A stretch of 64,000 bases of DNA from Candidatus Omnitrophota bacterium. GTDB taxonomy: Bacteria > Omnitrophota > Omnitrophia > Omnitrophales > Aquincolibacteriaceae. Positions 22,186 to 49,138 of the stretch are shown one piece after another (the stretch's first letter is position 1; every line of letters begins with the position of its first letter). The stretch is from contig JAKLFP010000008.1 in the NCBI GenBank assembly GCA_022711115.1, forward strand, positions 6,617-70,616. The letters run 5' to 3'. Below the pieces are notes generated by a model. The model was not told the origin of the DNA and ran no database searches. It saw nothing but the letters and a program-made list of their open reading frames with translations. Made by a program: the position numbers and the translations under genes.

Positions 22186-22195
22186 GGGAAAAACC

Positions 22196-28910: not shown

Positions 28911-28984
28911 AAACAGAAAACAACAGGTGGAAGGCGATCGTTTTTGAAGCCATCCATCTTTTTCCATTCTGAGGGAACAATAAA

Positions 28985-30838: not shown

Positions 30839-30925
30839 TTCAAAAAGGAACTAGCCGAAAGGCGTTTCCCCCGATATAATTACGCAAATCCCCTAAGGTA
30901 ATCATCTCTCAATTGGAGGTTGTTC

Positions 30926-31735: not shown

Positions 31736-31737
31736 TC

Positions 31738-33432: not shown

Positions 33433-33438
33433 GGGCGC

Positions 33439-34428: not shown

Positions 34429-34467
34429 TTTTATAAAGCCCACACGATTGTTTCTCAGCTGATCTTT

Positions 34468-34507
34468 TTTACGCCATCTTTACACTTCCATCACGCCGAT
34501 TTGACAC
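34468..34507 (+). promoter_or_regulatory. array of four PhoP/PhoB-type direct-repeat half-sites at 11-bp phasing upstream of the porin gene
   Basis: TTTACGC (34468), TTTACAC (34479), ATCACGC (34490), TTGACAC (34501). Centres are exactly 11 bp apart. Lies about 70 bp upstream of the ATG at 34578. Confidence 0.45.
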
Positions 34508-34577
34508 GTTCTTTTTATCATTTCCTCAGAAGATAAAATCTCAAAATCTAAACCATGGGATAACAGGAGGAAGTGAT

Positions 34578-36110
34578 ATGAAGCGAAGAGTTGTTTGGCA
34601 AACGTTCGCATGTTTTGTTTTTTCGATTTTTTATTTTTCAACGCCAGTCATGGCTCAGGATGTGGAACTTGTCGGTTTAATCAAGGCTTTGCAAAAGCAA
34701 ATAACCGATCTTCAAACAACAGTTCAGGCTCAGAATGCAGAAATTCAGGAACTCAAAGCCAAAGGAGCTCGGATACAAGTAGCACCCAAAGGGGTAGAAA
34801 TGACCCCAATCACACCCATGAGTGAAGCAGAGTTCAAGCAACGCCTTGGTGACGCGACGGGGGGCGCGGACAAATGGCTCAAGGACCTGAAATTCAAAGG
34901 GGATCTCAGGCTTCGCTACGAGGCGTTTGATAACCGGAGCCAAAGTCTTTCTCCGAATGAAGCGGATTCCAGAAACCGTTTCCGGTATCGGCTGCGCTAT
35001 GGATTTGAAAAGAAATTCAGCGATCAAATCCTTGCGGGTTTCAGCCTGGCTTCGGGAGAGGCGCCTTATATCAATGGCTCGAGCGGAGGTTCTTCGCAAG
35101 CGTTTAACGGTGACCCAACATCCACCAATACTTCGTTCGACAGCAACTTCAATTTCAAGCCTATCTATATTGAAAAGGCCTATGCGACTTACACGCCGAA
35201 TTGGGTCAAGATACGGCTTGCCGATGGCCTGGGCATCGATAATCTGACGATCACCGGCGGGAAGATGGATAATCTTTTTGAAAAGGGCTCCTCCGAAATC
35301 ATGTGGGACCGTGACGTAAAACCCGAAGGATTTATCCAAAAAATCGATGTGGCTCTTATCAAAGCAGCGGATTTTGCCCTCAAGGGGTTTTTCACGGCAG
35401 GGCAATTCGTGCTTGATGAGGATAAAGTCGCGACCGGTGCAAGCAGTGACGCCAATCTTTTTGCCTTTCAGATGGGCGTCAATCCGGTTTTCTACACGCC
35501 TGTGATGGATCGCCCCATCGATCTTCTATCAGCCGTTTCTTATTATGATTTTGGGAAATACGGTCAGTACAATAATTGGAAAATTGACGGTGCCAGCGGG
35601 AGAAGTCTGGCACGAGGCAACCCACGTGATCCTACCAATTCGGCAAGCTTGGCCGCGGGAGGGTTCCGGATATGGGAAACTTACAATGAATTGGCATTTT
35701 ATCCCATGGGAATTCCTGTCCGGCCATTTTTTGATTATCTCACCAATACGGCAAATGGCGCCGGGATTTTCCCGGTTGCCGGTTCTAATGAGGATCATTC
35801 GTGGGCCTACGGGCTGAAAGTAGGGGGGATCCACAAAAAAGGGGACTGGGAACTCGGCTGGCAGTACCGATATGTAGGAGCGAATGCGCAGCCAGGATTC
35901 AATGACAGCGATTTTGGCTATGAAGCCCATTCGGGTGTTCGTGGCAATGTGTTCAAAGCCGGGTATGGCTTGACGGACTATCTGACCGTCAATGGGGCCA
36001 TGTATTTTGTGAATAACCTTAATCCAGGAAATACGAGAGGTCTCACGGATACCTACGGCATCGAGCAACGACAAAACCGTTTCCAAGTGGATCTTGTCTG
36101 GAAATTCTAA
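34578..36110 (+). CDS. outer-membrane porin, probably phosphate-selective (OprO/OprP-like)
   Basis: 510 aa with signal peptide (MKRRVVWQTFACFVFSIFYFSTPVMA). N-terminal coiled-coil-like segment. Ends in the aromatic residue (..WKF) typical of beta-barrels. Embedded between pit and pstS behind Pho-box-like repeats. RBS AGGAGG. Confidence 0.6.
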   Translation: MKRRVVWQTFACFVFSIFYFSTPVMAQDVELVGLIKALQKQITDLQTTVQAQNAEIQELKAKGARIQVAPKGVEMTPITPMSEAEFKQRLGDATGGADKWLKDLKFKGDLRLRYEAFDNRSQSLSPNEADSRNRFRYRLRYGFEKKFSDQILAGFSLASGEAPYINGSSGGSSQAFNGDPTSTNTSFDSNFNFKPIYIEKAYATYTPNWVKIRLADGLGIDNLTITGGKMDNLFEKGSSEIMWDRDVKPEGFIQKIDVALIKAADFALKGFFTAGQFVLDEDKVATGASSDANLFAFQMGVNPVFYTPVMDRPIDLLSAVSYYDFGKYGQYNNWKIDGASGRSLARGNPRDPTNSASLAAGGFRIWETYNELAFYPMGIPVRPFFDYLTNTANGAGIFPVAGSNEDHSWAYGLKVGGIHKKGDWELGWQYRYVGANAQPGFNDSDFGYEAHSGVRGNVFKAGYGLTDYLTVNGAMYFVNNLNPGNTRGLTDTYGIEQRQNRFQVDLVWKF

Positions 36111-36112
36111 AG

Positions 36113-36130
36113 TTTACATGGATTTTACAT
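36113..36130 (+). promoter_or_regulatory. Pho box (TTTACAT-N4-TTTACAT) upstream of pstS
   Basis: Perfect 7-bp direct repeat TTTACAT / ggat / TTTACAT. Ends 50 bp upstream of the pstS ATG. Matches the B. subtilis PhoP-type TT(A/T/C)ACA consensus with 11-bp periodicity. Confidence 0.55.
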
Positions 36131-36179
36131 CCGTAGCGCAGATTCTGAATTAGAATAAAAAAACAAAGGAGAGATTGAA

Positions 36180-37052
36180 ATGAAACTATCAAAATTGGTT
36201 GTTCGAGGAGCGCTGATCATGGGTTTTGCAGCGCTCGTGCCCATGGCGTTCGCGGCAAAGAATATTACGGTCAAAGGATCGGATACGATGGTGGTGCTCG
36301 GCCAGAAGTGGGCCGAAGTCTATATGCAGAAAAATCCCGGCGTTGCTATTCAAGTGACGGGTGGCGGGTCCGGGACAGGGATTGCCGCTTTGATCAACGG
36401 CACGACTGATCTTGCCAACGCGAGCCGTCCCATCAAGGAAAGTGAAGTAGAAAAAGCGCAAAAAGCAGGCTATTACCCGGAGGAGATCAAGGTCGCGATG
36501 GACAGTTTGGCCGTTGTGACGCATAGCACGAATCCCATCAAAGAGCTCTCCATGAAACAGTTGATGGGCATTTATATGGGACGGATCAACAACTGGAATG
36601 AAGTGGGGGGACCCGACAAACCGATTCTTCGGTATTGCCGTGAGTCTTCAAGCGGCACCTATGTTTTTTTTAAAGAACATGTTCTGAAGAATCAAGACTA
36701 TGCTGCGGATTGCCAGACCATGCCTGGGACTTCCGCTGTCGCGAATGCCGTTTCCAAGGATCCCTCTGGGATCGGGTATGGCGGGGCGGCCTACTATCTC
36801 AACCAGCCCCAGATCAAGATTCTTTCCATTAAAAAAGACGACAAATCGGAAGGAGTCAATCCAGTCAAGGCGGATGGGACTTTGGATTATGAAGCCGCCT
36901 GGACGGGACGTTATCCGGTTGCCAGATATCTGTACATGTACGCCGGCTTTAAACCGCGCGGGGATGTTAAGGCGTATGTGGCTTGGATCTTGAGTCCGGA
37001 AGGACAGAAGATCGTCGAAGAGATCGGCTACGTGCCGCTTGAAGCAAAATAG
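36180..37052 (+). CDS. pstS: phosphate ABC transporter substrate-binding protein PstS
   Basis: 290 aa with signal peptide. GSDTMVVLGQKW...GGGSGTGIAALINGTTD phosphate-binding protein motifs. RBS AAGGAGAG. Confidence 0.85.
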   Translation: MKLSKLVVRGALIMGFAALVPMAFAAKNITVKGSDTMVVLGQKWAEVYMQKNPGVAIQVTGGGSGTGIAALINGTTDLANASRPIKESEVEKAQKAGYYPEEIKVAMDSLAVVTHSTNPIKELSMKQLMGIYMGRINNWNEVGGPDKPILRYCRESSSGTYVFFKEHVLKNQDYAADCQTMPGTSAVANAVSKDPSGIGYGGAAYYLNQPQIKILSIKKDDKSEGVNPVKADGTLDYEAAWTGRYPVARYLYMYAGFKPRGDVKAYVAWILSPEGQKIVEEIGYVPLEAK

Positions 37053-37135
37053 AACATTTTTTGCGGAGCCCGCTCAGCCCTAAAGCGGCGAACGGGGGAA
37101 AGTCCCAAAAACGGACCGATCTTCGCAAGCAATAA

Positions 37136-37170
37136 GAGGGCTGGTATCAAGATTAATGATACCGGCCCTC
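37136..37170 (+). promoter_or_regulatory. intercistronic stem-loop between pstS and pstC (14-bp stem, 7-nt loop)
   Basis: GAGGGCTGGTATCA-agattaa-TGATACCGGCCCTC: 13 Watson-Crick pairs plus one G-U. No following U-tract. Lies 17 nt before the pstC ATG. Confidence 0.55.
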
Positions 37171-37186
37171 GAAATTAAAATGTTAT

Positions 37187-38155
37187 ATGCGTAAAGAAAT
37201 GCTGGGGAGCATGGAACAACACCGCTTGACGAAAAAAAAAGAAGTCTTTTCGGAATGGTTCATCGAAAAATTACTGCTTATGGCAGGGATTTCGTCGACT
37301 CTGATCATTGCTCTGATCTTCCTGTTTCTTTTCAAAGAGGCAGTTCAATTCTTCAAAACCGCTGGGTCTTTCGATCTCATCGGGAAATGGGTTTACGACG
37401 ACTGGGAGGAGAGGAATGTTTTCAAGATGATGTGGCAATCGATTTCCGAAGTCCCGAAATATTCTCTCATTCCGTTGTTTTGCGGAAGTTTTTTGGTAGC
37501 GTTTCCGGCCACGATCATTGCTTCAGTTCTCGGCATCGGTTGTGCAATTTATCTTTCCGAACTCGCCCCGCCCAAAGTCAGGGAGATGCTGAAGCCGACG
37601 ATTGAACTCCTGGCAGGGATCCCGTCGGTCGTGATCGGTTTTATCATGCTCGCTTTTCTCGCGACCTTTATTCAGGATGTTTTTCACACAAAATTTCGCC
37701 TCAATGCTTTTGTCGGGGCCTGCGGCGTTGCGCTGGCGGTGCTTCCGATCATGATTACCATTGCGGAGGATGCCATGAGGGCAGTCCCCAAAGAACTCCG
37801 GGACGCGTCGTACGCGTTAGGCGCGACCAAGTGGCAGACAATCTGGGGGACGGTCGTTCCAGCCGCTGTGTCCGGTATTTCGGCGGCAGTGATCCTCGGG
37901 TTTGGCCGCGCACTCGGCGAAACGATGATCGTGCTGATGGCGACAGGAAACGCGGCTCTCGTGACCGGGAATATTTTTTCCAGTGTCCGGACCATGACGG
38001 CCAATATCGCCGCGGAGCTTGGTTCCGTGGCGCAGGGGACCGAACATTATTACGCCCTTTTTCTCGTCGGGGCTGTTCTTTTTACGTTTACCTTCACGCT
38101 CAATTTTATTTCCGAGATTATCTTGAACAAGATGCGGCAAAAATTGAGGATGTAA
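37187..38155 (+). CDS. pstC: phosphate ABC transporter permease PstC
   Basis: 322 aa polytopic membrane protein. ABC permease EAA-like region (YALGATKWQTIW). Position in the pstSCAB operon. Confidence 0.85.
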   Translation: MRKEMLGSMEQHRLTKKKEVFSEWFIEKLLLMAGISSTLIIALIFLFLFKEAVQFFKTAGSFDLIGKWVYDDWEERNVFKMMWQSISEVPKYSLIPLFCGSFLVAFPATIIASVLGIGCAIYLSELAPPKVREMLKPTIELLAGIPSVVIGFIMLAFLATFIQDVFHTKFRLNAFVGACGVALAVLPIMITIAEDAMRAVPKELRDASYALGATKWQTIWGTVVPAAVSGISAAVILGFGRALGETMIVLMATGNAALVTGNIFSSVRTMTANIAAELGSVAQGTEHYYALFLVGAVLFTFTFTLNFISEIILNKMRQKLRM

Positions 38156-38157
38156 AT

Positions 38158-39129
38158 ATGAAGAACGCGTTATCCCTTAAATTTCATGGGCTCACAAAAA
38201 GAAGCTTTCGATGGGACGAAGTCCTTTCGGATTTTCTAGTGCGTTTTTTTGCTTTGATCCCCATCGCCGCGCTTGCTTTTATCATGATGAAGATCATTGC
38301 GAAAGGGAGTGGCGCGATCACTTGGGAATTTCTGACTCAGGCGCCGTCGCAGGGAATGATGCACGGTGGCATTTTCCCGTGTATTTTTGGGACGCTTGCC
38401 ATTACTTTATTGATGATCCTCATGGCGCTCCCGCTCGGTGTGGCGGCCGCGATCTATCTGACCGAATACGCGGGAAAGGGGTTGCTTTTCCGGGTCATCC
38501 GGGCCGCGGTCAATAATCTGGCCGGTGTTCCTTCAATCGTGTTCGGGCTTTTTGGCGTCGGTTTTTTTATTCTCTTTGTGGGCCGCAATCTTGATGCGGT
38601 TCTTAAGACGGGGATGTTATTCGGCCAGCCCTGCATGCTTTGGGCCGCGGCGACTCTTGCCGTTCTCGTGTTGCCGGTTATTATCGTTGCAACGGAAGAA
38701 GCGCTTAATACCGTTCCGCAGAGTCAACGCGCCGCTTCGCTCGCGCTCGGCGCAACAAAATGGCAGACCATTTGGAACATAGTCCTCCCTCAGGCTCGCG
38801 GCGGGATCTTAACGGGAGCGATTCTCTCGATCAGCCGCGGCGCCGGGGAAACCGCGCCGATTTTGTTCACAGGCTGCGCTTATTTTTTACCAAGACTCCC
38901 GGTTGTGAACCTTTTCGGATTCATACCTATGATCAACCCCTTTGACCAGTTCATGGAGCTTTCTTATCATATCTTTATTATGGCTACGCAGTCTTTGGAC
39001 GCGGTCAAGACGCTTCCGATCCAATACGGGACAACGCTTGTTCTGATTTCATTGACCTTTTTGCTTAATTTGACGGCTATTCTTTTTAGAGTCCATTTTC
39101 GAAAAAAAATGGGGACTGTAACCGTTTGA
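38158..39129 (+). CDS. pstA: phosphate ABC transporter permease PstA
   Basis: The supplied ORF 37831..39129 is an in-frame 5' extension overlapping pstC. The ATG at 38158 lies 2 nt after the pstC stop. 323 aa membrane protein with a second ALGATKWQTIW motif. Confidence 0.8.
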   Translation: MKNALSLKFHGLTKRSFRWDEVLSDFLVRFFALIPIAALAFIMMKIIAKGSGAITWEFLTQAPSQGMMHGGIFPCIFGTLAITLLMILMALPLGVAAAIYLTEYAGKGLLFRVIRAAVNNLAGVPSIVFGLFGVGFFILFVGRNLDAVLKTGMLFGQPCMLWAAATLAVLVLPVIIVATEEALNTVPQSQRAASLALGATKWQTIWNIVLPQARGGILTGAILSISRGAGETAPILFTGCAYFLPRLPVVNLFGFIPMINPFDQFMELSYHIFIMATQSLDAVKTLPIQYGTTLVLISLTFLLNLTAILFRVHFRKKMGTVTV

Positions 39130-39268
39130 TAATTCCCAAGCGCCAGCGGGTCGGAGTTTGTTGATTCATCACGACTGCCGTAACCTCCTTGGGGTTAGGT
39201 TGCCGGGTCAGGTATCCTAAGTAAAATATAAAATTAAGGCGAAGAAAAACAAACAGAAGGGCGAGCAG

Positions 39269-40090
39269 ATGGAAATAAAAATTTTAAACAGCGGAAAGAC
39301 TCTTAGAGTCAATCAGGATCAGGACCTTTCGAGCAATACGACCAAGATACTTGTCCGAGACCTTGAAATGTTCTATGGCCCGGTTCGAGCGCTTCATGGG
39401 ATCGACATGGAGATTAAGGAAAAGGCTGTGACGGCGCTCATCGGTCCTTCTGGTTGCGGGAAATCGACCTTTTTGCGCACATTGAACCGGATGAACGATA
39501 CAATCCCTGGCGCTAGGATCCATGGAACTGTTCTTATCGATGATGTCAATATTTACAGTCCGGAAGTGAATGTTGCTGTGCTGCGCCGCATGGTGGGAAT
39601 GGTGTTCCAAAAGCAAAATCCTTTTCCTAAAAGTATTTTTGACAATATCGCTTATGGTCCCCGCCTCCATGGTGTTATCGATAAAGCGGTGCTTGAACAC
39701 ATTGTCGAGGAAAGTCTCAAAAAAGCGGCGCTTTGGAATGAAGTCAAAGATCGGCTGCAGACGGGGGCGCTCGAGCTTTCCGGAGGACAGCAGCAAAGGC
39801 TTTGCATCGCGCGCGTCCTTGCCGTGAATCCCGAAATCATACTTATGGACGAGCCGGCTTCGGCGTTGGACCCGCTTTCGACGGCGAAGATCGAAGAACT
39901 TATTTATGAATTGAGGAAAAATTACACGATCGTGATCGTCACCCATAACATGCAGCAGGCCGCGCGTGTTTCGGATTTTACCGCGTATTTTTATATGGGC
40001 TCGCTTGTGGAATTCGGTTTGACCAAGGATGTTTTCACGAATCCGCTGAAGAAAGAAACCGAGGATTATATTACCGGCCGGTTCGGCTAA
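39269..40090 (+). CDS. pstB: phosphate import ATP-binding protein PstB
   Basis: 273 aa. Walker [13 protein letters not shown] signature LSGGQQQRL, Walker [12 protein letters not shown]. Confidence 0.9.
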
Positions 40091-40101
40091 GGAGAAGGAA
40101 C

Positions 40102-40764
40102 ATGGAACGTCATTTTCATGAAGAGTTCAAAACGTTAAGGGAAAAGCTTTTTCAGATGGGATTGCTGGTGGAAGGAGCTATGGAGAAGGCCATGGACACG
40201 ATCCTTGAACGTAAAGGAGAATTGGTCGAAGCCGTTCTAACGGATGAAAATCTTATCAATCAACTTGAGATCGAGATCGATGAAAAAGGTCACGCCTTGT
40301 TCGCTTTGGCGCAGCCCGTGGCGGGTGATCTCCGACTATTAACCATGATCCTTAAGATCAATACGGATCTCGAAAGAATGGGCGATCATGCGGTCAATAT
40401 CGCCGAGAAAGGCCAATACCTTCTTGGCCAGGCGCCGCTCAAAACGGATTTTCCCATCGGCAAGATGGCGGATTCTGTAAAAAAAATGGTTCGCGATGCT
40501 CTTGATTGTTTTATGAACGAAAATGTGGAGTTGGCCCGCAAGGTGCTCCAAAGCGATGACGAGATCGATGATTTCAACGATCAGCTTTATGAAGTTATGG
40601 CAACGCTTATGGAAAAAGATCCCCCAGCTGTTCGGAGAGCTTTAAATTATATGATTATTGGGCGCAATCTCGAGCGCATTGCGGATCTGGCGAATAACAT
40701 TGCTGAAGACACCATCTATCTTAAGCAAGGGAAAGAAGTGCGCCACCACTTCGAAAAAAAATGA
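40102..40764 (+). CDS. phoU: phosphate signalling complex protein PhoU
   Basis: 220 aa two-repeat helical protein immediately after pstB. RBS AAGGAGAAGG. Confidence 0.85.
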   Translation: MERHFHEEFKTLREKLFQMGLLVEGAMEKAMDTILERKGELVEAVLTDENLINQLEIEIDEKGHALFALAQPVAGDLRLLTMILKINTDLERMGDHAVNIAEKGQYLLGQAPLKTDFPIGKMADSVKKMVRDALDCFMNENVELARKVLQSDDEIDDFNDQLYEVMATLMEKDPPAVRRALNYMIIGRNLERIADLANNIAEDTIYLKQGKEVRHHFEKK

Positions 40765-40767
40765 GCG

Positions 40768-42543
40768 CTATTTAGGAAAGAAAACAGAAAAACGGGAGCC
40801 CTCGTGAAATGTGCTTTGGCAGGTGACTTTACCACCGTGGGCTTCCATAATATGCTTCACAATGGCAAGTCCAAGCCCTGTGCCGCCCATCTCTCTCGAT
40901 CTTGCTTTGTCCACGCGGAAAAACCGTTCGAAAATACGCGGGAGGGCCTCCTGGGGGATCCCTGTGCCGGTATCTTCGATCGAAATTTCAATTTCTCCGG
41001 GATGTTGTTTGGCATCCAGGATGATTTTGCCTTTTTTTTCGTTAAATTTGATCGCATTATCAATCAAATTCACAAGCACTTGCCTGAATTTATCAAGGTG
41101 GGCTTTCAGCGAAATGGCTGGAATTCGGGCGATTTTGTTTTCGATAACTAATTGTTTTAATTCGATTTGGGATTTGAACCTATCGAGAACGGTCTGGATT
41201 TCTTTCTGAAGCTCCAGATTTTCTTTGCTTATAAGCTTGTTGCTCTGTTCGATTTCATTAAGCGTTAGCAGGTCATCGACCAAGCGGGAGAGACGGGAAG
41301 TATCTTCGGACATCATTTTTAAGAAGCCTTCACTGGTTTTTGGATCTTTAAGAGCTCCGCCTAAGAGCGTCTCAATGAACCCTTGCAATGAAGTGAGAGG
41401 CGTCCGGAGTTCATGAGAAACATTGGCCACGAATTCTTTGCGGATGTTTTCAAGTCTGCGCAGTTCGGTCACATCGTAAAAGACGAGGATCCCTCCGATA
41501 TTTTGGATGTTTTCGCCAAGAATGACGACGTTGGCGCGCAAGATGTTCCTGGTTTTTGAAGAAAGCTGAATTTCTTCCGTAATATCTTTTTGCTCTTTGA
41601 TGGCGCGATCGACAATCAGTTCAAGCACGGGATGCCGTGTTATTTCGATCAGGCTTTTCCCAAAAGCTTGATTCATATAAAAGCCGAAAAGATGCTCCGC
41701 GTTTGGATTTGCCGTAATTAGCCGCTTGCGGCGGTCGATCGCGATGACGGCTTCGGTCATGTTGTTGAGGATTGCGGCAATTTTCCCTTTCTCGTTTTCC
41801 AGATCCTTGATCCTGACTTTAAGCGTCTCGGCCATGAGATTCATCGTATCGCCAAGGAGTTTGAGTTCATCCTTTCCGTCCATCAAGATCCTTTCCGACC
41901 AATCTTCACGGGCGTATTTTTCAGCAACCCAGGTGATTTTTTTTATACGTTGGGTCAAATGTTTTGCGAATAAAATTCCAGTAAATAAAACGATCAGAAC
42001 CCCGGCAAGCGCAGAAACGATAATGGGTTTTCGGGCCGACGCGAGAAGTTCGTCGACCCGGGTGATCGGCATGGCCACCCTTATCACGCCGCTTATTTTC
42101 TCATTTTCGAGGATAGGGACAGCAACATAAAGCATGGGAGTTTTGAGCGTCAGGCTGTAGCGGGTAAAGCTTCCCGTTGTTTTTCTGAGTGCCGCGGCAA
42201 TTTCCGGTCTTGAAGCGTGATTGTCCATTTTTTCAATCGCTTCTGGGGTTTCGCTGGAATCGGCCGAGACCGTCCCTTCCGGATTAACGACCGTAATGCG
42301 GCTTTGCGTGTCACGCGCGATTTTTTCGATAAGGCTTTGAAGTTCTGATTGTTGGGACAAAAGGGGAGCTGTAATTCTCCGGATCACAAGGGCCTGATGG
42401 GTGAGAGACTGTTTGAGTTGGGAAAGATTCCGCTTGCTGAGAGTCTGGGATAAGGTCCAATCCGTGATGATCAAGACCGTCACAAAAACGACGCCATAAA
42501 GTGCGATAAACCGTTTTGCGAAACCAATTCGTGGCCAAAGCAT
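40768..42543 (-). CDS. phoR: phosphate regulon sensor histidine kinase PhoR
   Basis: The supplied ORF runs to 42675 and overlaps phoB. The start MLWPRIGFAK (ATG at 42543) lies 1 nt after the phoB stop. N-terminal TM helices, HAMP-like region, HisKA (SHELRTPL), HATPase (GTGLGLAIVKH). Confidence 0.8.
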   Translation of the reverse strand: MLWPRIGFAKRFIALYGVVFVTVLIITDWTLSQTLSKRNLSQLKQSLTHQALVIRRITAPLLSQQSELQSLIEKIARDTQSRITVVNPEGTVSADSSETPEAIEKMDNHASRPEIAAALRKTTGSFTRYSLTLKTPMLYVAVPILENEKISGVIRVAMPITRVDELLASARKPIIVSALAGVLIVLFTGILFAKHLTQRIKKITWVAEKYAREDWSERILMDGKDELKLLGDTMNLMAETLKVRIKDLENEKGKIAAILNNMTEAVIAIDRRKRLITANPNAEHLFGFYMNQAFGKSLIEITRHPVLELIVDRAIKEQKDITEEIQLSSKTRNILRANVVILGENIQNIGGILVFYDVTELRRLENIRKEFVANVSHELRTPLTSLQGFIETLLGGALKDPKTSEGFLKMMSEDTSRLSRLVDDLLTLNEIEQSNKLISKENLELQKEIQTVLDRFKSQIELKQLVIENKIARIPAISLKAHLDKFRQVLVNLIDNAIKFNEKKGKIILDAKQHPGEIEISIEDTGTGIPQEALPRIFERFFRVDKARSREMGGTGLGLAIVKHIMEAHGGKVTCQSTFHEGSRFSVFFPK

Positions 42544-42544
42544 A

Positions 42545-43234
42545 CTAGTCTCCGTCGAAACGGTAACCGACACTTTTGACTGTCGTGATCCGCCGCGATT
42601 CGTTTCCGAGTTTTTTTCGAAGTTGCGTGATATGCATGTCCACGGTCCGGGTCTCGATGTTGATGGAATTTTCATATCCCCAAACTTTGGATAAAAGGAC
42701 CTCGCGCGTCAGGACGCGCCCTGAGGAACTCATGAGTATTCGGAGAAGTTCAAACTCTTTTGCCGTAACTTCCACGGGCCTGGTTTTGAGGCGCAGTTCG
42801 TGCTTGCTGATATCCAGTTCAATGGTGCCGATCTTTAAGAATTCCTTTTTAGGGATCTCCTGGCTCCTCCGGAGGACAGCTTTGACACGGGCGATCAACT
42901 CGCGAGGGCTGAAGGGTTTAGTGATATAGTCATCAGCCCCAAGTTCCAATCCCACCACTTTATCCGCTTCCGTCCCTTTGGCCGTGAGCATAATGATTGG
43001 GATTGTGCGTGTTTTAGGATTTTGCCGGAGGGTTTTACAGATATCAAGGCCGCTTAATTCCGGCAACATAAGATCCAGAATGACGAGGGAGGAACTGCCC
43101 CTTAATGCCAATTCGAGGCCCATTCGTCCTTTACTTGCTGTCAGGACCTGAAAGCCTTCGTGCTCGAGATTATATTTGATAAGCTCGAGGATGTTTTTCT
43201 CATCTTCAATGACGAGGATCTTTTCGTTTGTCAT
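42545..43234 (-). CDS. phoB: phosphate regulon response regulator PhoB/PhoP (OmpR family)
   Basis: 229 aa. Receiver domain (LVIEDE...D...K) plus winged-helix C-terminus (TVDMHITQLRKKL). Divergent from the Pho-box-containing promoter. Confidence 0.85.
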   Translation of the reverse strand: MTNEKILVIEDEKNILELIKYNLEHEGFQVLTASKGRMGLELALRGSSSLVILDLMLPELSGLDICKTLRQNPKTRTIPIIMLTAKGTEADKVVGLELGADDYITKPFSPRELIARVKAVLRRSQEIPKKEFLKIGTIELDISKHELRLKTRPVEVTAKEFELLRILMSSSGRVLTREVLLSKVWGYENSINIETRTVDMHITQLRKKLGNESRRITTVKSVGYRFDGD

Positions 43235-43273
43235 AAATTTGACGCATCATTTTAACATAGCTTCCAAAGCTTC

Positions 43274-43291
43274 ATGTAAAAAAGATGTAAA
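43274..43291 (-). promoter_or_regulatory. Pho box (TTTACAT-N4-TTTACAT on the - strand) in the phoB / DUF2490 divergent promoter
   Basis: The + strand reads ATGTAAA-aaag-ATGTAAA, the reverse complement of the pstS box. Lies 40 bp upstream of the phoB ATG and 58 bp upstream of the + strand gene at 43349. Confidence 0.5.
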
Positions 43292-43348
43292 GAAATGAAT
43301 GTTTTGTGTACAATCTTTTTGTTTTGATTCGCGCACTTAGGAGGATTC

Positions 43349-44044
43349 ATGAAACGTTCTTTTTCCGTTTGTTTTTTTGGCATAGTTTTTTTGATGCTTT
43401 TAGGAATCAAGAGCCCCTTAGCGACTGCCACGCCCGCCAAAGATGAGGATTTTGGTTCTTGGCAAATTTACGATATTGAAAAGAAAGTGAACTCCCAGTT
43501 TAAAATGAAGGTGGGGGAAGAACTGCGTTTCCGGAGCCACAACGGGCTTTATTATGCGGAGACCCATGTGGGAGTGGACTATAAGCTGATGAAATACCTG
43601 GCGTTGGGTGCCGAGTATCAGGAAATCATCAGCTCCCGATGGAATAAGAAAAAGAAAGAAAATTTGTGGTATTGGGATAACGTGCCTCGCTTTTACACCA
43701 CGCCGCAATATTCTTTGAAAGGTTTCGTACTTGAAGACCGCAATATGTTGGAACTCCATTTTAAGCAACAAGCGGATAATACTGTGCGTTATCGGAATAT
43801 GGTGACCATCACGGCACCCTGGAAATGGACCCCGTTGGAATTTCAGCCATATACCTCCAACGAAATATTCATCGAGACCACCCGTAACGGGATGGTGGAG
43901 GACCGGTTTTTTTCCGGATTCAAGGTGCATTGGTGGGGGCCGGTTTCCGGATCGATCTTTTATTTGCGCCAATCCGCCAAGAATTCTCTCGCGAAATGGA
44001 CGTCGCTCAATATTCTCGGGACAAGTCTTAAATACTCTTTTTAG
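43349..44044 (+). CDS. hypothetical outer-membrane protein (DUF2490-like), possibly Pho-regulated
   Basis: 231 aa with signal peptide. Alternating beta-strand-like pattern. Ends ..LKYSF. RBS TAGGAGGA. Shares a promoter region with the Pho box. Confidence 0.5.
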   Translation: MKRSFSVCFFGIVFLMLLGIKSPLATATPAKDEDFGSWQIYDIEKKVNSQFKMKVGEELRFRSHNGLYYAETHVGVDYKLMKYLALGAEYQEIISSRWNKKKKENLWYWDNVPRFYTTPQYSLKGFVLEDRNMLELHFKQQADNTVRYRNMVTITAPWKWTPLEFQPYTSNEIFIETTRNGMVEDRFFSGFKVHWWGPVSGSIFYLRQSAKNSLAKWTSLNILGTSLKYSF

Positions 44045-44046
44045 GG

Positions 44047-44079
44047 GGCTCACGGAAAGAGCCGTATTTTTCTCTTTTT
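44047..44079 (+). terminator. putative rho-independent terminator after the DUF2490-like gene
   Basis: GGCTC-acggaaa-GAGCC hairpin followed by gtaTTTTTcTcTTTTT. Confidence 0.4.
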
Positions 44080-44166
44080 CAAAGAAGTTTTATGTTAAAA
44101 TACCGCCACTTTTCTTGAAACTATTTCCACAAAGGAAAATATCAGGCGTCATTTTTTTGATCAAAC

Positions 44167-45846
44167 ATGACAAAATCTGGATTTATAGAAACAGACATTT
44201 TGGTAATTGGCGGAGGGGTAGCGGGCCTCTCCTTTGCGATTCATATCGCGGATTTGGTTGAAAAGCATAACCAAGGTTTGAGCAATAAACTACCCTTGAA
44301 CGTTCTTTTGCTTGAAAAAGGGGCTTCTTTGGGGAGCCATAGCCTCTCCGGTGCGGTCGTCAATCCTTCCACAATTAAGGAACTGCTTCCGGAAATCGCA
44401 GAAAAAGACCTTCCCTTTGATTCTCCGGTCACCAAAGACGAGTTTTACCATCTTCTTCCCCAACATGCGATAAGGATGCCCTTTACACCGCCTTTTATGG
44501 GTAATCGCGGAAATTTCGTAGCTTCGATCGGTAAAATAACGAGATTCCTAGGAGAAATTGCTGAAAAAAAAGGTGTTCAAGTTTATCCCGGGTTCAGTGT
44601 GGATGAACTTCTTTATGAGAACGGGCAAGTTGTCGGGGCGAAGACGATCGATACCGGTGTCGACAAGCATGGTAAGCCGATGGAGAATTTCCAGCCGGGT
44701 ACGAAAGTGCTCGCCAAACTTGTGATCCTGGCTGAAGGGCCGCGCGGGAGCCTTTCGACAAAATTTATCCGCAAGCATGAACTTGTGAAAAATAACCCGC
44801 AGGTTTATTCCACAGGTGTCAAAGAACTTTGGGATGTGCCTGAAGGGACTTTTCAAGCCGGGCGCGTTATCCATACGCTCGGATTTCCTTTTGAATTCAA
44901 CCACTTTGGCGGTGGGTTTATTTATGGCATGAACAGCCGGCAGGTTGCGGTAGGCATTGCGGCGGCACTTGATTACAAGGACCCGACTTTTAATCCGCAT
45001 GCCGCGTTTCAACTGTATAAGAAGCATCCGTTTGTTGCCAAGATTCTGGAAAAAGGAAGAATCCTGAAATATGGCGCAAAAACGATTCCAGAAGGTGGGT
45101 TTTATTCGTTGCCGCAGCTTTATCATGATCACGTGATGATTGTCGGGGATTCTGCCGGATTCCTGAGCATGCCAAGTCTGAAAGGGATTCATCTCGCCAT
45201 CGAATCCGGGATGCTTGCGGCCCAAACGGCTTTTGAGGCGCTTCAGAAGAATGATTTTTCGAAAGGCCAGCTTCAATCTTATGAAGACCGGTATCAAAAA
45301 AGCTCGGGCTATAAAAATTTGTACCGAGTGCGCAATTTCCGGGCGGGATTTCAATACGGGATGATTCTCGGTGCGTTTCATTTTGCCTGGCAAATCGTGA
45401 CGGGCGGGCGCGGCATCGCGCCTTCGGGAAAAATGAGGTTGCATGAGGACGCATCGTGTTATCAAAAGCTTCCTGATGTAAAAAACCCATTCCTGACAAA
45501 ATTCAAAAAAGAACTGAATTTCGATAAAAAGCTTACGTTCGATAAAGTGACCGATGTTTTTTATTCCGGATCTAAGCATGATGAGGAACAACCGTGCCAT
45601 TGCCGTGTGCTGGATTTTGACCTTTGCCGTGATATCTGTATTCCCAAATACGGCGGGCCTTGCCAGCATTTTTGTCCGGCGGAGGTTTATGAGATCGTGA
45701 CAGACCCAAAAACAGGAAAAAAGGATCTTCATCTTCACCCCGCAAACTGCGTGCATTGCAAGACTTGTGACATCAACGATCCTTTTGGCAATATCGAATG
45801 GGCGGTGCCGTACGGTGGCGATGGCCCGGAGTATGAGAATCTCTGA
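44167..45846 (+). CDS. electron transfer flavoprotein-ubiquinone oxidoreductase (ETF-QO)
   Basis: 559 aa. N-terminal GGGVAGLSFA FAD motif. C-terminal 4Fe-4S motif CQHFCPAEVYEI...CVHCKTCDINDP characteristic of ETF-QO. Confidence 0.85.
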   Translation: MTKSGFIETDILVIGGGVAGLSFAIHIADLVEKHNQGLSNKLPLNVLLLEKGASLGSHSLSGAVVNPSTIKELLPEIAEKDLPFDSPVTKDEFYHLLPQHAIRMPFTPPFMGNRGNFVASIGKITRFLGEIAEKKGVQVYPGFSVDELLYENGQVVGAKTIDTGVDKHGKPMENFQPGTKVLAKLVILAEGPRGSLSTKFIRKHELVKNNPQVYSTGVKELWDVPEGTFQAGRVIHTLGFPFEFNHFGGGFIYGMNSRQVAVGIAAALDYKDPTFNPHAAFQLYKKHPFVAKILEKGRILKYGAKTIPEGGFYSLPQLYHDHVMIVGDSAGFLSMPSLKGIHLAIESGMLAAQTAFEALQKNDFSKGQLQSYEDRYQKSSGYKNLYRVRNFRAGFQYGMILGAFHFAWQIVTGGRGIAPSGKMRLHEDASCYQKLPDVKNPFLTKFKKELNFDKKLTFDKVTDVFYSGSKHDEEQPCHCRVLDFDLCRDICIPKYGGPCQHFCPAEVYEIVTDPKTGKKDLHLHPANCVHCKTCDINDPFGNIEWAVPYGGDGPEYENL

Positions 45847-45899
45847 CGAAGGGGACCGGCACTGGGTACTTGCCTGTCTCTTTTGCGGAAAAGGAAAAT

Positions 45900-47861
45900 A
45901 TGGGACTTAAAATTATCAGTTTGATGAAGCAAGTACCGCTCCCGACAGAAATGAGAATGGGGGCGGACGGGCTCATGGACCGTACCAAAGCGAAGTCGAT
46001 CATCAATAACGACTGTTCGTTCGGGCTTGAGCAGGGATTGCAGATCAAAAAGTATGTTCCGGATGTGGAACTGATCGTGGTCTCCATGGGACCGCCGAGT
46101 TTCGAGCAATCCATGAAAAAAGCGTTAGCGATGGGTTATGACCGGGCGATTCTTCTTTCCGACCGGAAACTGGGGGGGTCTGATACTTTTGCGACCGGTT
46201 ATGCGATCTCTTCTTTGATCAAAAAACTTGGTTTTGACAAAAGCGGCAAAAATCCGTTTATTATTTTTTCCGGTCGCCAAACCACGGACGGGGATACGGC
46301 GCATGTCCCATCGCAGACCGCTGAAAATCTCGGGATCCCCCAGGCGACATTCGTGGAAAAAGTAGAGTTTCAAAGCGATCACTTAAAAGTTCGCCGAATC
46401 ATCGAAGGAGGTTATCAGGTTCTGCGCCTGCCGATCCCATGCCTTATTTCGATTGCGCCGACCGCCACTCCTGCACGCCGGCCTTCTTTGGAAGGTGCGA
46501 TTCGAGCGCGGAACACAAAAATGGAAGTCTGGACGCTTGATCAAACGGGCGCGGATGCCAGCGTAGTCGGTCTGAACGGTTCGCCGACACTGGTGTCCAA
46601 GGTCGTGGATATTCAGAAAGACCGTCCGCCAGTCAATATGATCACCGGCCCCACGAACAAAGATCTTGCGGAGGGGCTTGTTGCTGAGATTGAAAAGATC
46701 AAGGATCAGATCGCAGGAGGACATACCCAAGTTTTAACAAAAGATGAAAAGCAGGAAGTGGCAGAGGCTAAAACAGATTCTGGATTTCCCAAAGTCGATT
46801 TTCGTCAAGGGGCGTATGGTGTGATGACTTGGGTCGAGATGCACGGCCAGAAGCCGTCCAGGTCTTCGCTCGAGATTCTGAGTCAGGCCAGAAAACTGGC
46901 GGACCAGCTTTCTACCAAAGTCATTTCCATCATGGTAGGGCACAATATCAAATCGGTGGCGCAAGAGATCATTGCCTATGGAGCTGACGAAGCGGTGGTG
47001 GTGGATGACCCGAGGCTTAAAGAATATACGACACTGCCGACAGCCGCGGCGATCGGACAATATATCGAAAAAAATCGTCCGGAGATCGCTCTTTTCGGGG
47101 CGACAACCTCGGGTCGCGAACTCGCTCCGCGGCTTGCGAGCCGTGTGCGTGCGGGGGTGACCGCGGATTGCACCAGTCTTGAGGTCGGAGAATATGTTCA
47201 CCGTATGAAAAAAACGGTGTTTTATCCGGTGCTTCAATCGATTCGTCCCACCTATGGCGAGAGTAAACTGGCGACGATTATTGGTTTCTGGTGCCCGCAA
47301 ATGGCGACTGCGCGACCCGGAACGTTCAAGATCCCGAAACGTGATTCAAACCGGAAAGGAACAGTCACGGAGTTCAAGCCTGTGTTTAAGGATAGCGATT
47401 TTGTGGTGGAGGTTGTGGAGACCAAACGCGAAGAGGGTGGCGCCGACAATCTTTTCGTGGCGGATATTGTCATCTCAGGCGGCAGACCTGCCGGGGAACA
47501 TGACGATTTAAAATTAATCAAAGAACTCACCCAAGCACTTCAAGATCAGGGTATCAATGCGGATTGGGGCGCGAGTCGTCATGCGGTGGACAATGGTTAT
47601 GCGCCTTATGGGCGTCAGGTTGGACAGACCGGCAAGACTATCCGACCCAAAGTTTATGTCGCCGTTGCGATTTCCGGAGCCATCCAGCATTTGGCAGGGA
47701 TGAAAGAATCCGGAAAGATCATTGCTATCAATCAAGACCCGCAGGCCCCGATCTTCCGTCATGCGGATTTTGGCATTGTGCGCGATTATCAGGAAGTGCT
47801 TCCCGAACTCATCGGGAAAGTTAAAGCCGGTTTCACCTTCGGCCTCAATCCCAGCAAGTAA
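45900..47861 (+). CDS. fused electron transfer flavoprotein beta-alpha (FixA-FixB fusion)
   Basis: The supplied ORF starts at 45870. MGLKIISLMKQVP (ATG 45900, RBS AAAGGAAA) matches the ETF-beta start. The C-terminal half contains the ETF-alpha FAD signature VAVAISGAIQHLAGMKESGKIIAINQD. 653 aa, about the sum of beta plus alpha. Confidence 0.75.
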   Translation: MGLKIISLMKQVPLPTEMRMGADGLMDRTKAKSIINNDCSFGLEQGLQIKKYVPDVELIVVSMGPPSFEQSMKKALAMGYDRAILLSDRKLGGSDTFATGYAISSLIKKLGFDKSGKNPFIIFSGRQTTDGDTAHVPSQTAENLGIPQATFVEKVEFQSDHLKVRRIIEGGYQVLRLPIPCLISIAPTATPARRPSLEGAIRARNTKMEVWTLDQTGADASVVGLNGSPTLVSKVVDIQKDRPPVNMITGPTNKDLAEGLVAEIEKIKDQIAGGHTQVLTKDEKQEVAEAKTDSGFPKVDFRQGAYGVMTWVEMHGQKPSRSSLEILSQARKLADQLSTKVISIMVGHNIKSVAQEIIAYGADEAVVVDDPRLKEYTTLPTAAAIGQYIEKNRPEIALFGATTSGRELAPRLASRVRAGVTADCTSLEVGEYVHRMKKTVFYPVLQSIRPTYGESKLATIIGFWCPQMATARPGTFKIPKRDSNRKGTVTEFKPVFKDSDFVVEVVETKREEGGADNLFVADIVISGGRPAGEHDDLKLIKELTQALQDQGINADWGASRHAVDNGYAPYGRQVGQTGKTIRPKVYVAVAISGAIQHLAGMKESGKIIAINQDPQAPIFRHADFGIVRDYQEVLPELIGKVKAGFTFGLNPSK

Positions 47862-47896
47862 TTATTTTACCGCCTGCGAGGCATATTAGGTTTATC

Positions 47897-49138
47897 ATGA
47901 AAATCATCGCGGATTTTCATATTCATTCCAAATACAGCCGGGCAACTTCCAAAGAAATGGAAGTCGGAACACTTGCCCATTTTGCCGAAAAGAAGGGGAT
48001 CAATCTTCTCGGGACCGGCGATTTCACGCACCCACAATATTTCAAAGAACTTCAATCCGAGTTGGAACCGCTCGGTAATGGTTTTTTCAGGTTGAAAGGA
48101 GAAAAATCTCCCGTTCATTTTGTTTTGAGTGCTGAAACAAGCCATATTTTTTCAGTAAAAGGAAAGACGCATCGTGTGCATGTGATCCTTCTGGCTCCCT
48201 CATTGGATGTAGTTGAGAAAATCAATAGGCAATTGGCCCGGCGTGGCAATATTGCGAGCGATGGCCGGCCGATCTTCGGGATGCATGTCAAAGACATGGT
48301 GAAGCTTACCCTCGATATTTCTCCGGAAGTCATGATCATCCCGGCCCATGCATGGACGCCGTGGTTTTCGGTCTTTGGATCAGCCTCAGGTTTTGACTCC
48401 CTTGAGGAATGTTTTGAAGAGCAGGCAAAGAATATCTATGCGATTGAGACGGGACTTTCATCGGACCCGTCCATGAACTGGCGGTTTTCAAACTTGGACA
48501 GGATCACGCTTATTTCCAATTCGGATGCTCATTCTCCTGCCAAGATCGGCCGGGAAGCGAATGTGCTGAACTGTGCCATGAATTACAGAGAAGTGATGGA
48601 TGTGATACGGACAGGCGCTCCGGAGAAGTTTCTTTATACGATAGAATTTTTCCCGGAAGAAGGAAAATACCATTTTGACGGGCACCGGGACTGTGGTGTG
48701 GTTTTCGACCCGAAGACTTCGAAAGAACATCAGTTTATTTGTCCCAAGTGCGGTAAACAATTAACGATTGGGGTCATGCACCGCGTGGAAGAGCTTGCGG
48801 ACCGCCCCACAGGTTTTTGTCCGGAAAAGAAAATTCCTTTTAAAAGCATGATTCCTCTTGATGAGATCCTTTCGGATACATTCCATAAAGGTGTTGCGAC
48901 GCAAACGGTCGCCAGGGAATACGAAAAAATGATACAGACTATCGGTCCAGAACTCGAGATCCTTTTGGAGAAAACTCCGGAAGAAATGGGGTCTATGGCG
49001 GATCCGAAAGTCATTGAAGCAATCCTGAATGTTCGGAACGGTAAAGTTCGGATTGAACCGGGTTATGACGGTTGTTACGGAAAAATCAAAGTGCCTTCCA
49101 TGTCGTCTTCACAAAAGGAACTTTTCAGTATCTCTTGA
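47897..49138 (+). CDS. PHP-domain protein with internal zinc-ribbon, endonuclease Q-like
   Basis: 413 aa. DFHIHSKYS N-terminal PHP motif, further His/Asp clusters, CPKCGKQ zinc ribbon. Confidence 0.5.
   Translation: MKIIADFHIHSKYSRATSKEMEVGTLAHFAEKKGINLLGTGDFTHPQYFKELQSELEPLGNGFFRLKGEKSPVHFVLSAETSHIFSVKGKTHRVHVILLAPSLDVVEKINRQLARRGNIASDGRPIFGMHVKDMVKLTLDISPEVMIIPAHAWTPWFSVFGSASGFDSLEECFEEQAKNIYAIETGLSSDPSMNWRFSNLDRITLISNSDAHSPAKIGREANVLNCAMNYREVMDVIRTGAPEKFLYTIEFFPEEGKYHFDGHRDCGVVFDPKTSKEHQFICPKCGKQLTIGVMHRVEELADRPTGFCPEKKIPFKSMIPLDEILSDTFHKGVATQTVAREYEKMIQTIGPELEILLEKTPEEMGSMADPKVIEAILNVRNGKVRIEPGYDGCYGKIKVPSMSSSQKELFSIS

Follow-up and report, generated by a model that had tools for sequence, protein, structure and literature searches.

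We identified a two-gene cassette that is probably the two-polypeptide equivalent of the four-subunit FixABCX/EtfABCX system, in which electrons from NADH oxidation would be divided between quinone and a ferredoxin or flavodoxin of low potential. The cassette lies in a 64,000-nucleotide window (the whole stretch of DNA that was analysed) from a Candidatus Omnitrophota bacterium, and encodes an ETF:quinone oxidoreductase (ETF-QO) followed by EtfB and EtfA joined in one polypeptide (EtfBA). Its gene structure, the domain identities of its products, the conservation of cofactor-site residues and the obligate pairing of the two genes were observed directly.

Gene structure and protein domains

An earlier note on this DNA had described a full-length ETF-QO followed by a genuine EtfB-EtfA fusion, and both the open reading frames and their Pfam and NCBIfam domains bear this out. 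The etfQO gene (44167..45846, + strand) encodes a full-length protein of 559 aa, and etfBA (45900..47861, + strand) an uninterrupted EtfB-linker-EtfA protein of 653 aa. The mechanical ORF of the fused ETF (45870-47861) opens with TTG and would give 663 aa. The ATG at 45900 has a Shine-Dalgarno-like AAGGA 5 nt upstream (45891..45895, + strand, read directly from the sequence) and yields the 653-aa product, the length quoted in the earlier note; all homologues begin at the equivalent of this ATG, with M-[GSA]-L-K/T-I/V. The intergenic gap is 53 bp, a consensus scan found no terminator-like sites within it, and etfQO and etfBA constitute a real two-gene operon. A terminator-like hairpin just 3' of the upstream DUF2490 gene (44047..44063, + strand) might, weakly, set that gene apart from the cassette; it is a consensus match only, from a scan that found nine such sites against 5.8 +/- 2.4 expected in shuffles. 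A promoter scan of 43900-48300 did not exceed the shuffled expectation and placed no site in the upstream gap. GC content across the cassette (0.47-0.51) is similar to that of the remainder of the window, and thus gives no sign of recent transfer.

In the fused protein, Pfam recognises two ETF domains and ETF_alpha, and NCBIfam matches it to EtfB models over aa 14-276 and to EtfA-type models over aa 321-653 (663-aa numbering). In the 653-aa numbering used hereafter, the EtfB (FixA-like) part covers aa 1-272 (45900..46715, + strand), with domain III and the C-terminal arm helices (aa 253-272). It is followed by an inter-subunit linker, aa 273-299 (46716..46796, + strand), and by the EtfA (FixB-like) part, aa 300-653 plus the stop codon (46797..47861, + strand), which begins with the invariant D300-F-R302. 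The junction, estimated previously at about aa 250-300, is hereby mapped to an EtfB end near aa 272 and an EtfA start at D300. The linker is K/E/A-rich, differs among relatives in both sequence and length, and is predicted to be disordered; it has no conserved columns, and its AF2 pLDDT falls below 50 at residues 275-292. Across relatives the segment 245-300 spans 45-66 residues, with a block conservation of 0.45-0.59. The AF2 model of the whole protein (pLDDT 81.6, pTM 0.81) is of low confidence only at 275-292, and Foldseek matched both of its halves to ETF chains. As modelled, EtfBA has the three-domain ETF fold with an additional flexible connection from the EtfB arm to EtfA domain I.

We compared 84 related loci from independent assemblies, and assessed residue conservation over 82 sequences. 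An assembly or sequencing artefact, in which a lost stop or a frameshift joined separate etfB and etfA genes, was the objection raised in the earlier note, and can be rejected with near certainty. There is no stop or frameshift at the EtfB/EtfA junction, and EtfB and EtfA lie in this order in a single uninterrupted ORF. One such ORF of 645-666 aa is present in 81/84 loci (the other three end at contig ends), and lengths of 620-672 aa hold throughout more than 100 clusters at 90% identity. Linker length changes by whole codons, and a fused ETF has been expressed as a single polypeptide, as seen on SDS-PAGE (PMC12042025).

The ETF-QO has the features of the mitochondrial-type enzyme (human/pig, Paracoccus), namely a single full-length chain that combines FAD and ubiquinone-binding domains with a 4-Cys [4Fe-4S] motif in its C-terminal domain. 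Pfam detected Fer4_ETF_QO (6.7e-37) and ETFQO_UQ-bd (PF21162, E 2.2e-30), the latter marking a quinone-binding domain at aa 214-307 (44806..45087, + strand). Pig ETF-QO (2gmh) aligned end to end (E 1.4e-115, residues 8-558 against 35-583), and the aligned core is 41% identical to the mitochondrial enzyme. T. maritima FixC (7koe_C) matched aa 7-390 (6.6e-31) and FixX (7koe_D) matched aa 463-556 (1.1e-9), within a FixX-like iron-sulfur domain that Pfam and the alignments place at aa 455-557 (45529..45837, + strand). On these matches, the protein would be a single-chain counterpart of FixC plus FixX. The four canonical cluster cysteines, C503, C528, C531 and C534, are invariant in 82/82 loci.

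The label "canonical" given to this ETF-QO in the earlier note holds for its domains and these four cysteines, but not for three extra cysteines and an Asp. Residues C487, C491, C499 and D538, a clade-specific set, align with C29, C33, C38 and C71, the distal-cluster ligands of T. maritima EtfX (ligand identities from PMC10734219). Compared with a protein holding two [4Fe-4S] clusters, the proximal site thus has all four cysteines, whereas the distal site has three, with Asp replacing the fourth. The triad is accompanied by Asp/Glu at 538 in 39/39 loci, and in our alignment it is absent from the ETF-QO of Bacteroidales, from the Campylobacterota versions and from pig. This Cys3+Asp motif is a small new detail, and may represent a remnant of the EtfX distal cluster.

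Conservation and spread of the cassette

The pairing is strict: etfQO lies 5-194 bp upstream of etfBA on the same strand in 84/84 loci, which come from at least five phyla and have otherwise unrelated flanking genes. The identities of ETF-QO and EtfBA co-vary across loci (r = 0.986). The clade was found in 437 GTDB species representatives, and fused proteins account for about 98 of the 150 best clusters at 50% identity. The architecture has also been published, by Garcia Costas 2017 as group 2C1 (quoted in PMC9751042), so that calling a fused EtfBA "uncommon", as had been done, was too strong. Other fused clusters are 28-45% identical to this clade, and other fused clades adjoin separate FixC plus FixX, or an ACAD, whereas the partner here is always a full-length ETF-QO.

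Clustering of 543 flanking ORFs from the 84 loci yielded no recurrent ferredoxin, flavodoxin or ACAD near the cassette, and revealed lineage-specific synteny only, together with a gene of the Ldh/Mdh family at 8 loci of Campylobacterota. In that phylum, in Bacteroidota and in the more distant Omnitrophota, the cassette occurs on its own. Among the Pfam-annotated genes of the window there is no ferredoxin or true flavodoxin. A Flavodoxin_2/NQO-like protein is encoded at 21598-22185.

Bifurcating-type signatures and candidate function

The nearest solved relatives of the fused ETF are all bifurcating ETFs. In phmmer comparisons the EtfA half scored 180-241 bits against solved bifurcating ETFs and 87-119 bits against canonical ones, and the EtfB half 107-149 and 62-75 bits, respectively, so that scores against the bifurcating proteins are about twice as high. 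The EtfB part carries the motifs LSDRKLGGSDT (aa 85-96) and GRQTTDGDT (aa 125-133), and G131, D95, T96 and the recognition-loop Leu197 are invariant in 82/82 sequences. G131, in the second motif, aligns with G123 of 4kpu_B. Gly123 (A. fermentans numbering) is invariant in bifurcating EtfB, where its small size leaves room for the flavin of a second FAD, whereas canonical EtfB has a bulky residue there (PMC12630350). In EtfA domain I, R449 is invariant among relatives and aligns with R146 of 4kpu_A; this Arg forms a hydrogen bond with the bifurcating flavin (R146 in A. fermentans EtfA, R419 in SaETF of Sulfolobus acidocaldarius; PMC12042025), and the equivalent Arg140 is essential for bifurcation in T. 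maritima EtfABCX (PMC10734219). The electron-transfer FAD site in domain II (R560, T577, Y586, H597) is conserved across relatives, with an R/K-17-T-9-Y-11-H spacing identical to that of K523, T540, Y549 and H560 in SaETF, as compared by published positions only (PMC12042025).

In sequence the fused ETF is of the bifurcating (group 2) type, since its closest solved relatives are bifurcating and both G131 and R449 are invariant. It departs from canonical group 1 in having Gly for the bulky residue at the AMP/FAD site, in being fused and in scoring about half as many bits against canonical ETFs, and its closest similarity is not to the human/Paracoccus type; the recognition-loop Leu of group 1 is kept. 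Sequence signatures alone are no proof of bifurcation: among the group-2-like ETFs reported to be non-bifurcating is acryloyl-CoA reductase ETF, the best NCBIfam match of the fused protein.

From these features we infer that the fused ETF contains two FADs, accepts electrons from NADH and bifurcates them, and we infer likewise which way the electrons run and what kind of low-potential partner receives them. The 653-aa protein would combine FixA(EtfB) and FixB(EtfA) through a flexible linker of about 27 residues and is expected to hold two FADs, and the 559-aa ETF-QO would fuse FixC, with its FAD and quinone site, to FixX, which supplies the iron-sulfur domain. The bifurcating FAD, at the interface of EtfB and EtfA domain I, would receive a hydride from NADH. 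One electron would then move downhill in energy to the electron-transfer FAD, which sits on the mobile domain II, and continue by way of the ETF-QO cofactors, its Fe-S cluster(s) and FAD, to (mena)quinone in the membrane; the second, strongly reducing electron would pass to a ferredoxin or flavodoxin encoded elsewhere. [quoted passage not shown]

A conventional non-bifurcating funnel strikes us as rather unlikely. The fused ETF would then take up electrons one at a time from dehydrogenases encoded elsewhere (acyl-CoA or other flavoprotein enzymes, possibly including the ACAD-like protein of the first ETF module in the window) and, like its mitochondrial counterpart, deliver them to the quinone pool by way of ETF-QO, with the second nucleotide site structural or unused. 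The full-length ETF-QO, with its core resembling the mitochondrial enzyme, agrees with such a role, as do an ACAD-like/ETF-like operon 0.1-2.8 kb upstream of the cassette on the same strand in about 11 close Omnitrophota genomes and the invariant Leu197. Full-length ETF-QO of the mitochondrial type usually partners canonical, non-bifurcating ETFs, which counts against the bifurcating reading. The lack of a cassette-linked ferredoxin or flavodoxin gene in the loci compared was likewise counted against it. The funnel is opposed by the conservation of all bifurcating-type residues, by the solved relatives and by the lack of an ACAD recurring beside the cassette in 84 loci. Synteny with the first module is moreover limited to close relatives and broken by phosphate-uptake genes. 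Relatives of Sulfurimonas and Sulfurovum also carry the cassette; these lineages are lithoautotrophs and are not known to oxidise fatty acids. Leu197 is used by canonical ETFs to dock dehydrogenases, and its invariance is compatible with other electron donors.

Bifurcation remains the preferred reading. A bolder version of it, possible but doubtful, is that the cassette encodes a minimal two-protein bifurcating NADH:(mena)quinone/ferredoxin oxidoreductase, in which the high-potential path of the Omnitrophota/Saprospiraceae/Melioribacter branch runs through a second, Cys3-Asp-ligated cluster inherited from FixX. It might then supply reduced ferredoxin generally, in a role so far unrecognised, to anaerobes and to rTCA autotrophs like the Sulfurimonas/Sulfurovum relatives.

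Relation to known systems and to the first ETF module

The modules of FixABCX/EtfABCX (A. vinelandii; T. maritima, PDB 7KOE; P. aerophilum) are all present in the cassette as FixA-, FixB-, FixC- and FixX-like units; all four 7KOE chains were matched, and the Arg beside the bifurcating FAD is kept. FixC-type and FixX-type units are likewise encoded beside the ETF genes at every locus, although here they are fused, giving two polypeptides instead of four separate subunits. The FixC-FixX unit also differs in its long ETF-QO architecture with a ubiquinone-binding domain insert, and the window holds no nitrogen fixation genes linked to the cassette. In contrast to mitochondrial-type ETF-QO, the protein has three to five extra cysteines and its operon lacks an ACAD. 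With group 2C1 and SaETF, a biochemically characterised fused member (Das et al., JACS Au 2025, PMC12042025), it shares the EtfB, linker, EtfA order and a resemblance to solved ETFs of the bifurcating type, and its 653 aa fall within the 592-656 aa range selected by those authors, whose survey includes ETF/Qor neighbourhoods like that seen here. It differs from SaETF in belonging to a bacterial clade, and from solved ETFs in a 9-10 residue insertion beside the bifurcating-site Arg.

The first module is a divergent ACAD-like/ETFQO-like/EtfB1/EtfA1 set. The earlier note had proposed one quinone-linked and one ferredoxin/FixCX-linked route. This division does not stand: both modules have an ETF-QO/FixC-family partner, the bifurcating-type signatures sit in the EtfBA module, and in the first module the EtfB-like protein has Arg where the diagnostic Gly would lie. 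Since the fused ETF has those signatures, it is the EtfBA module that resembles FixABCX, and it would serve quinone as well as low-potential acceptors.

It is quite improbable that in this Omnitrophota lineage the two modules form one functional system exchanging electrons, into whose single cluster an 11-kb phosphate island was recently inserted. EtfB1/EtfA1 homologues do lie directly upstream of ETF-QO in several relatives (L006, L010, L011, L017, L018, L019, L025 and others), with a gap of only 125 bp in L006, and in other relatives the PhoU_div/PHO4, PhoRB and DUF2490 gene sets between the modules vary. However, in Geobacter and Verrucomicrobia the first module forms a complete four-gene operon of its own, the cassette being absent, and the cassette occurs by itself in the lineages named above. 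Adjacency is confined to genomes about 80% identical, and shared ancestry therefore explains it; functional coupling is unlikely.

The fusion, its bifurcating character, its pairing with ETF-QO and ETF/Qor neighbourhoods are already in the literature, the fused architecture and its pairing being widespread, and no new category is opened here. Our analysis adds the strictness of the pairing, the taxonomic spread of the clade and the Cys3+Asp remnant. If the proposed activity is true, low-potential reductant would be obtained from NADH with only two proteins, which would bear on the physiology of uncultured Omnitrophota, Bacteroidota and Campylobacterota across the 437 species representatives. 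It would also be relevant to enzyme engineering, for which Das et al. already put forward the monomeric ETF as a bifurcating module that is tractable to work with (PMC12042025). We found no relevant literature on ETF in Omnitrophota. For Campylobacterota, the sole mention of an ETF role that we found is in the proteome of Nitrosophilus labii, where an "ETF alpha", perhaps the product of the fused gene, and ETF-QO rise (PMC11539149).

A fused ETF and its ETF-QO form a two-gene cassette

The first gene of the cassette, etfQO (44167-45846, +), encodes a 559-aa ETF:quinone oxidoreductase according to both Pfam and structure matches. It carries the Fer4_ETF_QO (6.7e-37) and ETFQO_UQ-bd (2.2e-30) domains, is matched end to end by pig ETF-QO (2gmh, E 1.4e-115), and resembles T. 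maritima FixC over its first 390 residues and FixX over residues 463-556 (both 7KOE). The second gene follows after 53 bp and houses two Pfam ETF domains and an ETF_alpha FAD domain. Its mechanical ORF (45870-47861, +) begins at a TTG and gives 663 aa, in which numbering aa 14-276 match NCBIfam EtfB models and aa 321-653 match EtfA-type ones. The ATG at 45900, with an SD-like AAGGA 5 nt upstream, is a start common to every homologue and reproduces the 653 aa of the earlier note; residue numbers below refer to this form. A weak terminator-like site follows the upstream DUF2490 gene, and a scan of this region of the window found none between etfQO and etfBA. ETF-QO and EtfBA are a self-contained two-gene cassette, and the order first proposed, an ETF-QO followed by a single-polypeptide EtfB-EtfA, is confirmed by both ORFs and their domains.

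The fusion junction had been placed near aa 250-300. This agrees with alignments to 19 homologues and, subsequently, to 81 relatives of full length. Conservation is strong from aa 1 to about aa 250 (EtfB) and across aa 300-653 (EtfA), and the intervening segment (about aa 252-299) varies in both sequence and length. The 245-300 stretch measures 45-66 residues with a block conservation of 0.45-0.59, and the EtfA part begins with an invariant D300-F-R302. In an AlphaFold2 model built on the 19-homologue alignment (mean pLDDT 81.6, pTM 0.81), the sole long low-confidence stretch is aa 275-292, which is preceded by two short helices (253-266 and 268-272) that correspond to the EtfB C-terminal arm. 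By Foldseek, both halves of the model resemble ETF chains, most closely 4kpu, 5ol2, 7koe and 6fah. In the fused SaETF, a third connection joins domain II to the base (PMC12042025), and the predicted EtfBA fold agrees with that account.

An artefactual merger of two genes, by a frameshift or stop at the junction, was also considered and is ruled out. A single unbroken ORF of 645-666 aa is present in 81 of 84 loci (80 retained from a GTDB scan that took a single genome for each species, plus four more), the other three ending at contig edges. More than 100 clusters sharing 58-99% identity came from a search across 5.8 billion proteins; apart from two partial sequences, all measure 621-672 aa and have both domain types. 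The survey of fused etfBA that had been suggested extends to 437 species encoding a relative in the GTDB-species scan.

Garcia Costas et al. 2017 placed fused etfB-etfA genes in group 2C1, according to PMC9751042. Das et al. 2025 purified the fused SaETF, which holds two FADs with bifurcating-type potentials, and collected 904 UniRef90 homologues, whose neighbourhoods include ETF/Qor, FixCX or ACADs and rarely have ferredoxin genes nearby (PMC12042025). That diversity is reproduced by our survey, in which other fused ETFs adjoin FixC, FixX and UbiA (locus L087), ACP and ACAD (L086), or only an Ldh/Mdh-like gene (L085). Among the best 150 clusters at 50% identity, there were 76 full-length single-stretch fusions and 22 long two-stretch proteins. 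The clade of the window protein is a well-separated branch, with more than 57% identity within it and at most 45% to the next cluster. The cassette is therefore best described as an Omnitrophota example of an already known fused-ETF type, to which the present analysis makes modest additions: a strict pairing with ETF-QO, the taxonomic spread, and a possible Cys3-Asp distal cluster.

Pairing with ETF-QO and its extra cysteines

In all 84 loci, an ETF-QO gene lies directly upstream of etfBA on the same strand, 5-194 bp away. These loci span Omnitrophota, Bacteroidota (Bacteroidales, Prolixibacteraceae, Paludibacteraceae and Saprospiraceae), Melioribacter, Campylobacterota (relatives of Sulfurimonas, Sulfurovum and Sulfurospirillum), Chromatiaceae and Planctomycetales. 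Identities of the ETF and the ETF-QO to the window proteins co-vary (r = 0.986, 71 loci), and the flanking genes are unrelated from phylum to phylum; clustering of 543 flanking ORFs revealed no recurrent ACAD, ferredoxin or flavodoxin beside the cassette. An Ldh/Mdh-family dehydrogenase gene is found immediately 3' of etfBA in eight Campylobacterota loci (L004, L041, L042, L047, L052, L058, L070 and L074) and at L085 (7145-8086), where it follows a 45%-identical fused ETF without an upstream ETF-QO. This neighbour may tie the fused ETF to an NADH-dependent step.

The description of the ETF-QO as canonical holds for its end-to-end match to the pig enzyme and for the four cluster cysteines of the latter (here C503, C528, C531 and C534), which are invariant in 82 loci. 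It does not extend to five further cysteines, at 477, 479, 487, 491 and 499. Of these, C487, C491 and C499 align with the distal [4Fe-4S] ligands C29, C33 and C38 of T. maritima EtfX, and D538 aligns with the fourth such ligand, C71 (45625-45780, +, aa 487-538); pig ETF-QO has neither this triad nor an acidic residue 538. In EtfX, C29 and C33 are distal [4Fe-4S] ligands, and C61 and C64 are proximal ligands (PMC10734219). The triad is found in 39 of 82 loci, from Omnitrophota, Saprospiraceae, Melioribacter, Chromatiaceae and Planctomycetales, and residue 538 is acidic in every one (38 Asp, 1 Glu). The 43 loci lacking it belong to Bacteroidales and Campylobacterota and, with one exception, have Ser, Thr or Ala at 538. 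This co-occurrence may reflect a Cys3-Asp second cluster, which would predict it, though it is confounded by phylogeny.

Bifurcating-type signatures and possible function

The top solved relatives of the fused ETF are all electron-bifurcating (C. difficile Bcd-EtfAB, A. woodii CarDE, T. maritima EtfAB(CX), A. fermentans EtfAB and A. woodii LctBC), and bit scores against bifurcating ETFs are about twice those against human, Paracoccus or W3A1 ETF. In bifurcating ETFs, position 123 (A. fermentans EtfB numbering) is always Gly, and ETFs that bind AMP have a bulky residue instead (PMC12630350); G131 of the GRQTTDGDT motif aligns with this Gly123 by HMMER and is invariant in 82 of 82 sequences. Likewise, the invariant R449 aligns with the Arg at N5 of the bifurcating flavin (A. 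fermentans R146, SaETF R419; PMC12042025), whose T. maritima EtfABCX equivalent, the conserved Arg140, is essential for bifurcation (PMC10734219). Conservation extends to the electron-transfer FAD site (R560, T577, Y586 and H597), with the same spacing of 17, 9 and 11 as K523, T540, Y549 and H560 of SaETF. Since these lines agree, the sequence of the fused protein is that expected of a bifurcating-type ETF with two FADs. An insertion of 9-10 residues, EYVHRMKKTVFYP (47190-47225, aa ~431-442), located a few residues before R449, is missing from all solved bifurcating EtfA chains; it is found clade-wide, with only K438 and P443 invariant, and forms a beta-hairpin in the model.

All four functional modules of FixABCX/EtfABCX are present in the cassette, packed into two chains. 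In A. vinelandii FixABCX, NADH oxidation is coupled to the reduction of ubiquinone and flavodoxin (reviewed in PMC5861303); in T. maritima EtfABCX the acceptors are menaquinone and ferredoxin, and both EtfX clusters lie on the high-potential path (PMC10734219). By analogy, the cassette probably acts in the same way, this being the most economical reading. The bifurcating FAD would be reduced by NADH, one electron would reach quinone by way of the electron-transfer FAD, the Fe-S cluster(s) and the ETF-QO FAD, and the second would go to a ferredoxin or flavodoxin encoded elsewhere. The main rival, which we consider rather unlikely, is a conventional ETF to ETF-QO funnel serving dehydrogenases encoded elsewhere. 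In its favour, canonical ETFs classically work with a full-length ETF-QO, Leu197 of the recognition loop is invariant, and bifurcation is not proven by sequence signatures alone.

The first ETF module and other genes of the window

In the first ETF module (26808-32772, +), four very divergent genes form an operon. Their products are a 700-aa ACAD-like protein with recognisable N- and C-terminal ACAD domains only, the middle domain not being recognisable, a 617-aa ETF-QO/FixC-like protein whose tail is a DmsB-like two-cluster ferredoxin domain, and very divergent EtfB-like (271 aa) and EtfA-like (344 aa) proteins. A weak alignment (E 1.4e-7) puts Arg at the diagnostic bifurcating-Gly position of the EtfB-like protein, and the EtfA-like protein has CHGEEPH in place of the ETF ISGAIQH. 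The earlier interpretation stands as to an ETF-QO with a genuine fusion. Its division into one quinone-linked and one FixCX-linked system fails because a FixC/ETF-QO-type partner is found in both modules and the cassette is the Fix-like one.

The four-gene set is kept at 64-70% identity in Omnitrophota, Geobacter, Verrucomicrobia, Planctomycetes and Armatimonadetes, is a stand-alone operon in Geobacter and Verrucomicrobia, and looks less explored than the fused-ETF cassette. In Geobacter it adjoins FabMG and PlsY-like genes. An 11-kb phosphate-uptake island (32800-44044) carrying PhoU_div/PHO4, a porin, PstSCAB, PhoU, PhoR/PhoB and DUF2490 separates the two modules. Some 11 Omnitrophota genomes closely related to the window have the four-gene set just upstream of the cassette, with variable phosphate-uptake genes between. 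In related Omnitrophota genomes the island is represented by shorter or different subsets, often with DUF2490 directly upstream of ETF-QO. The adjacency reads as gene order shared among close relatives, not functional coupling.

A gene for a 413-aa protein (47897-49138, +) begins 36 bp 3' of etfBA, had no Pfam match and is not kept beside the cassette in relatives; its N-terminal DFHIHSKYS and its CPKCG motif presumably recall PHP-type or endonuclease Q-like proteins. No Pfam match was obtained for the ORFs at 19227-20483 (418 aa, +) and 22100-23974 (624 aa, +), the latter probably having a later true start because a Flavodoxin_2/NQO-like gene (21598-22185) ends inside it. Neither half of a giant ORF (44-17092, +, 5682 aa) matched Pfam at E <= 1e-4; it starts 44 bases from the window edge and may be longer. 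A rubrerythrin gene (17294-17881, +) is consistent with an anaerobic or microaerophilic source organism.
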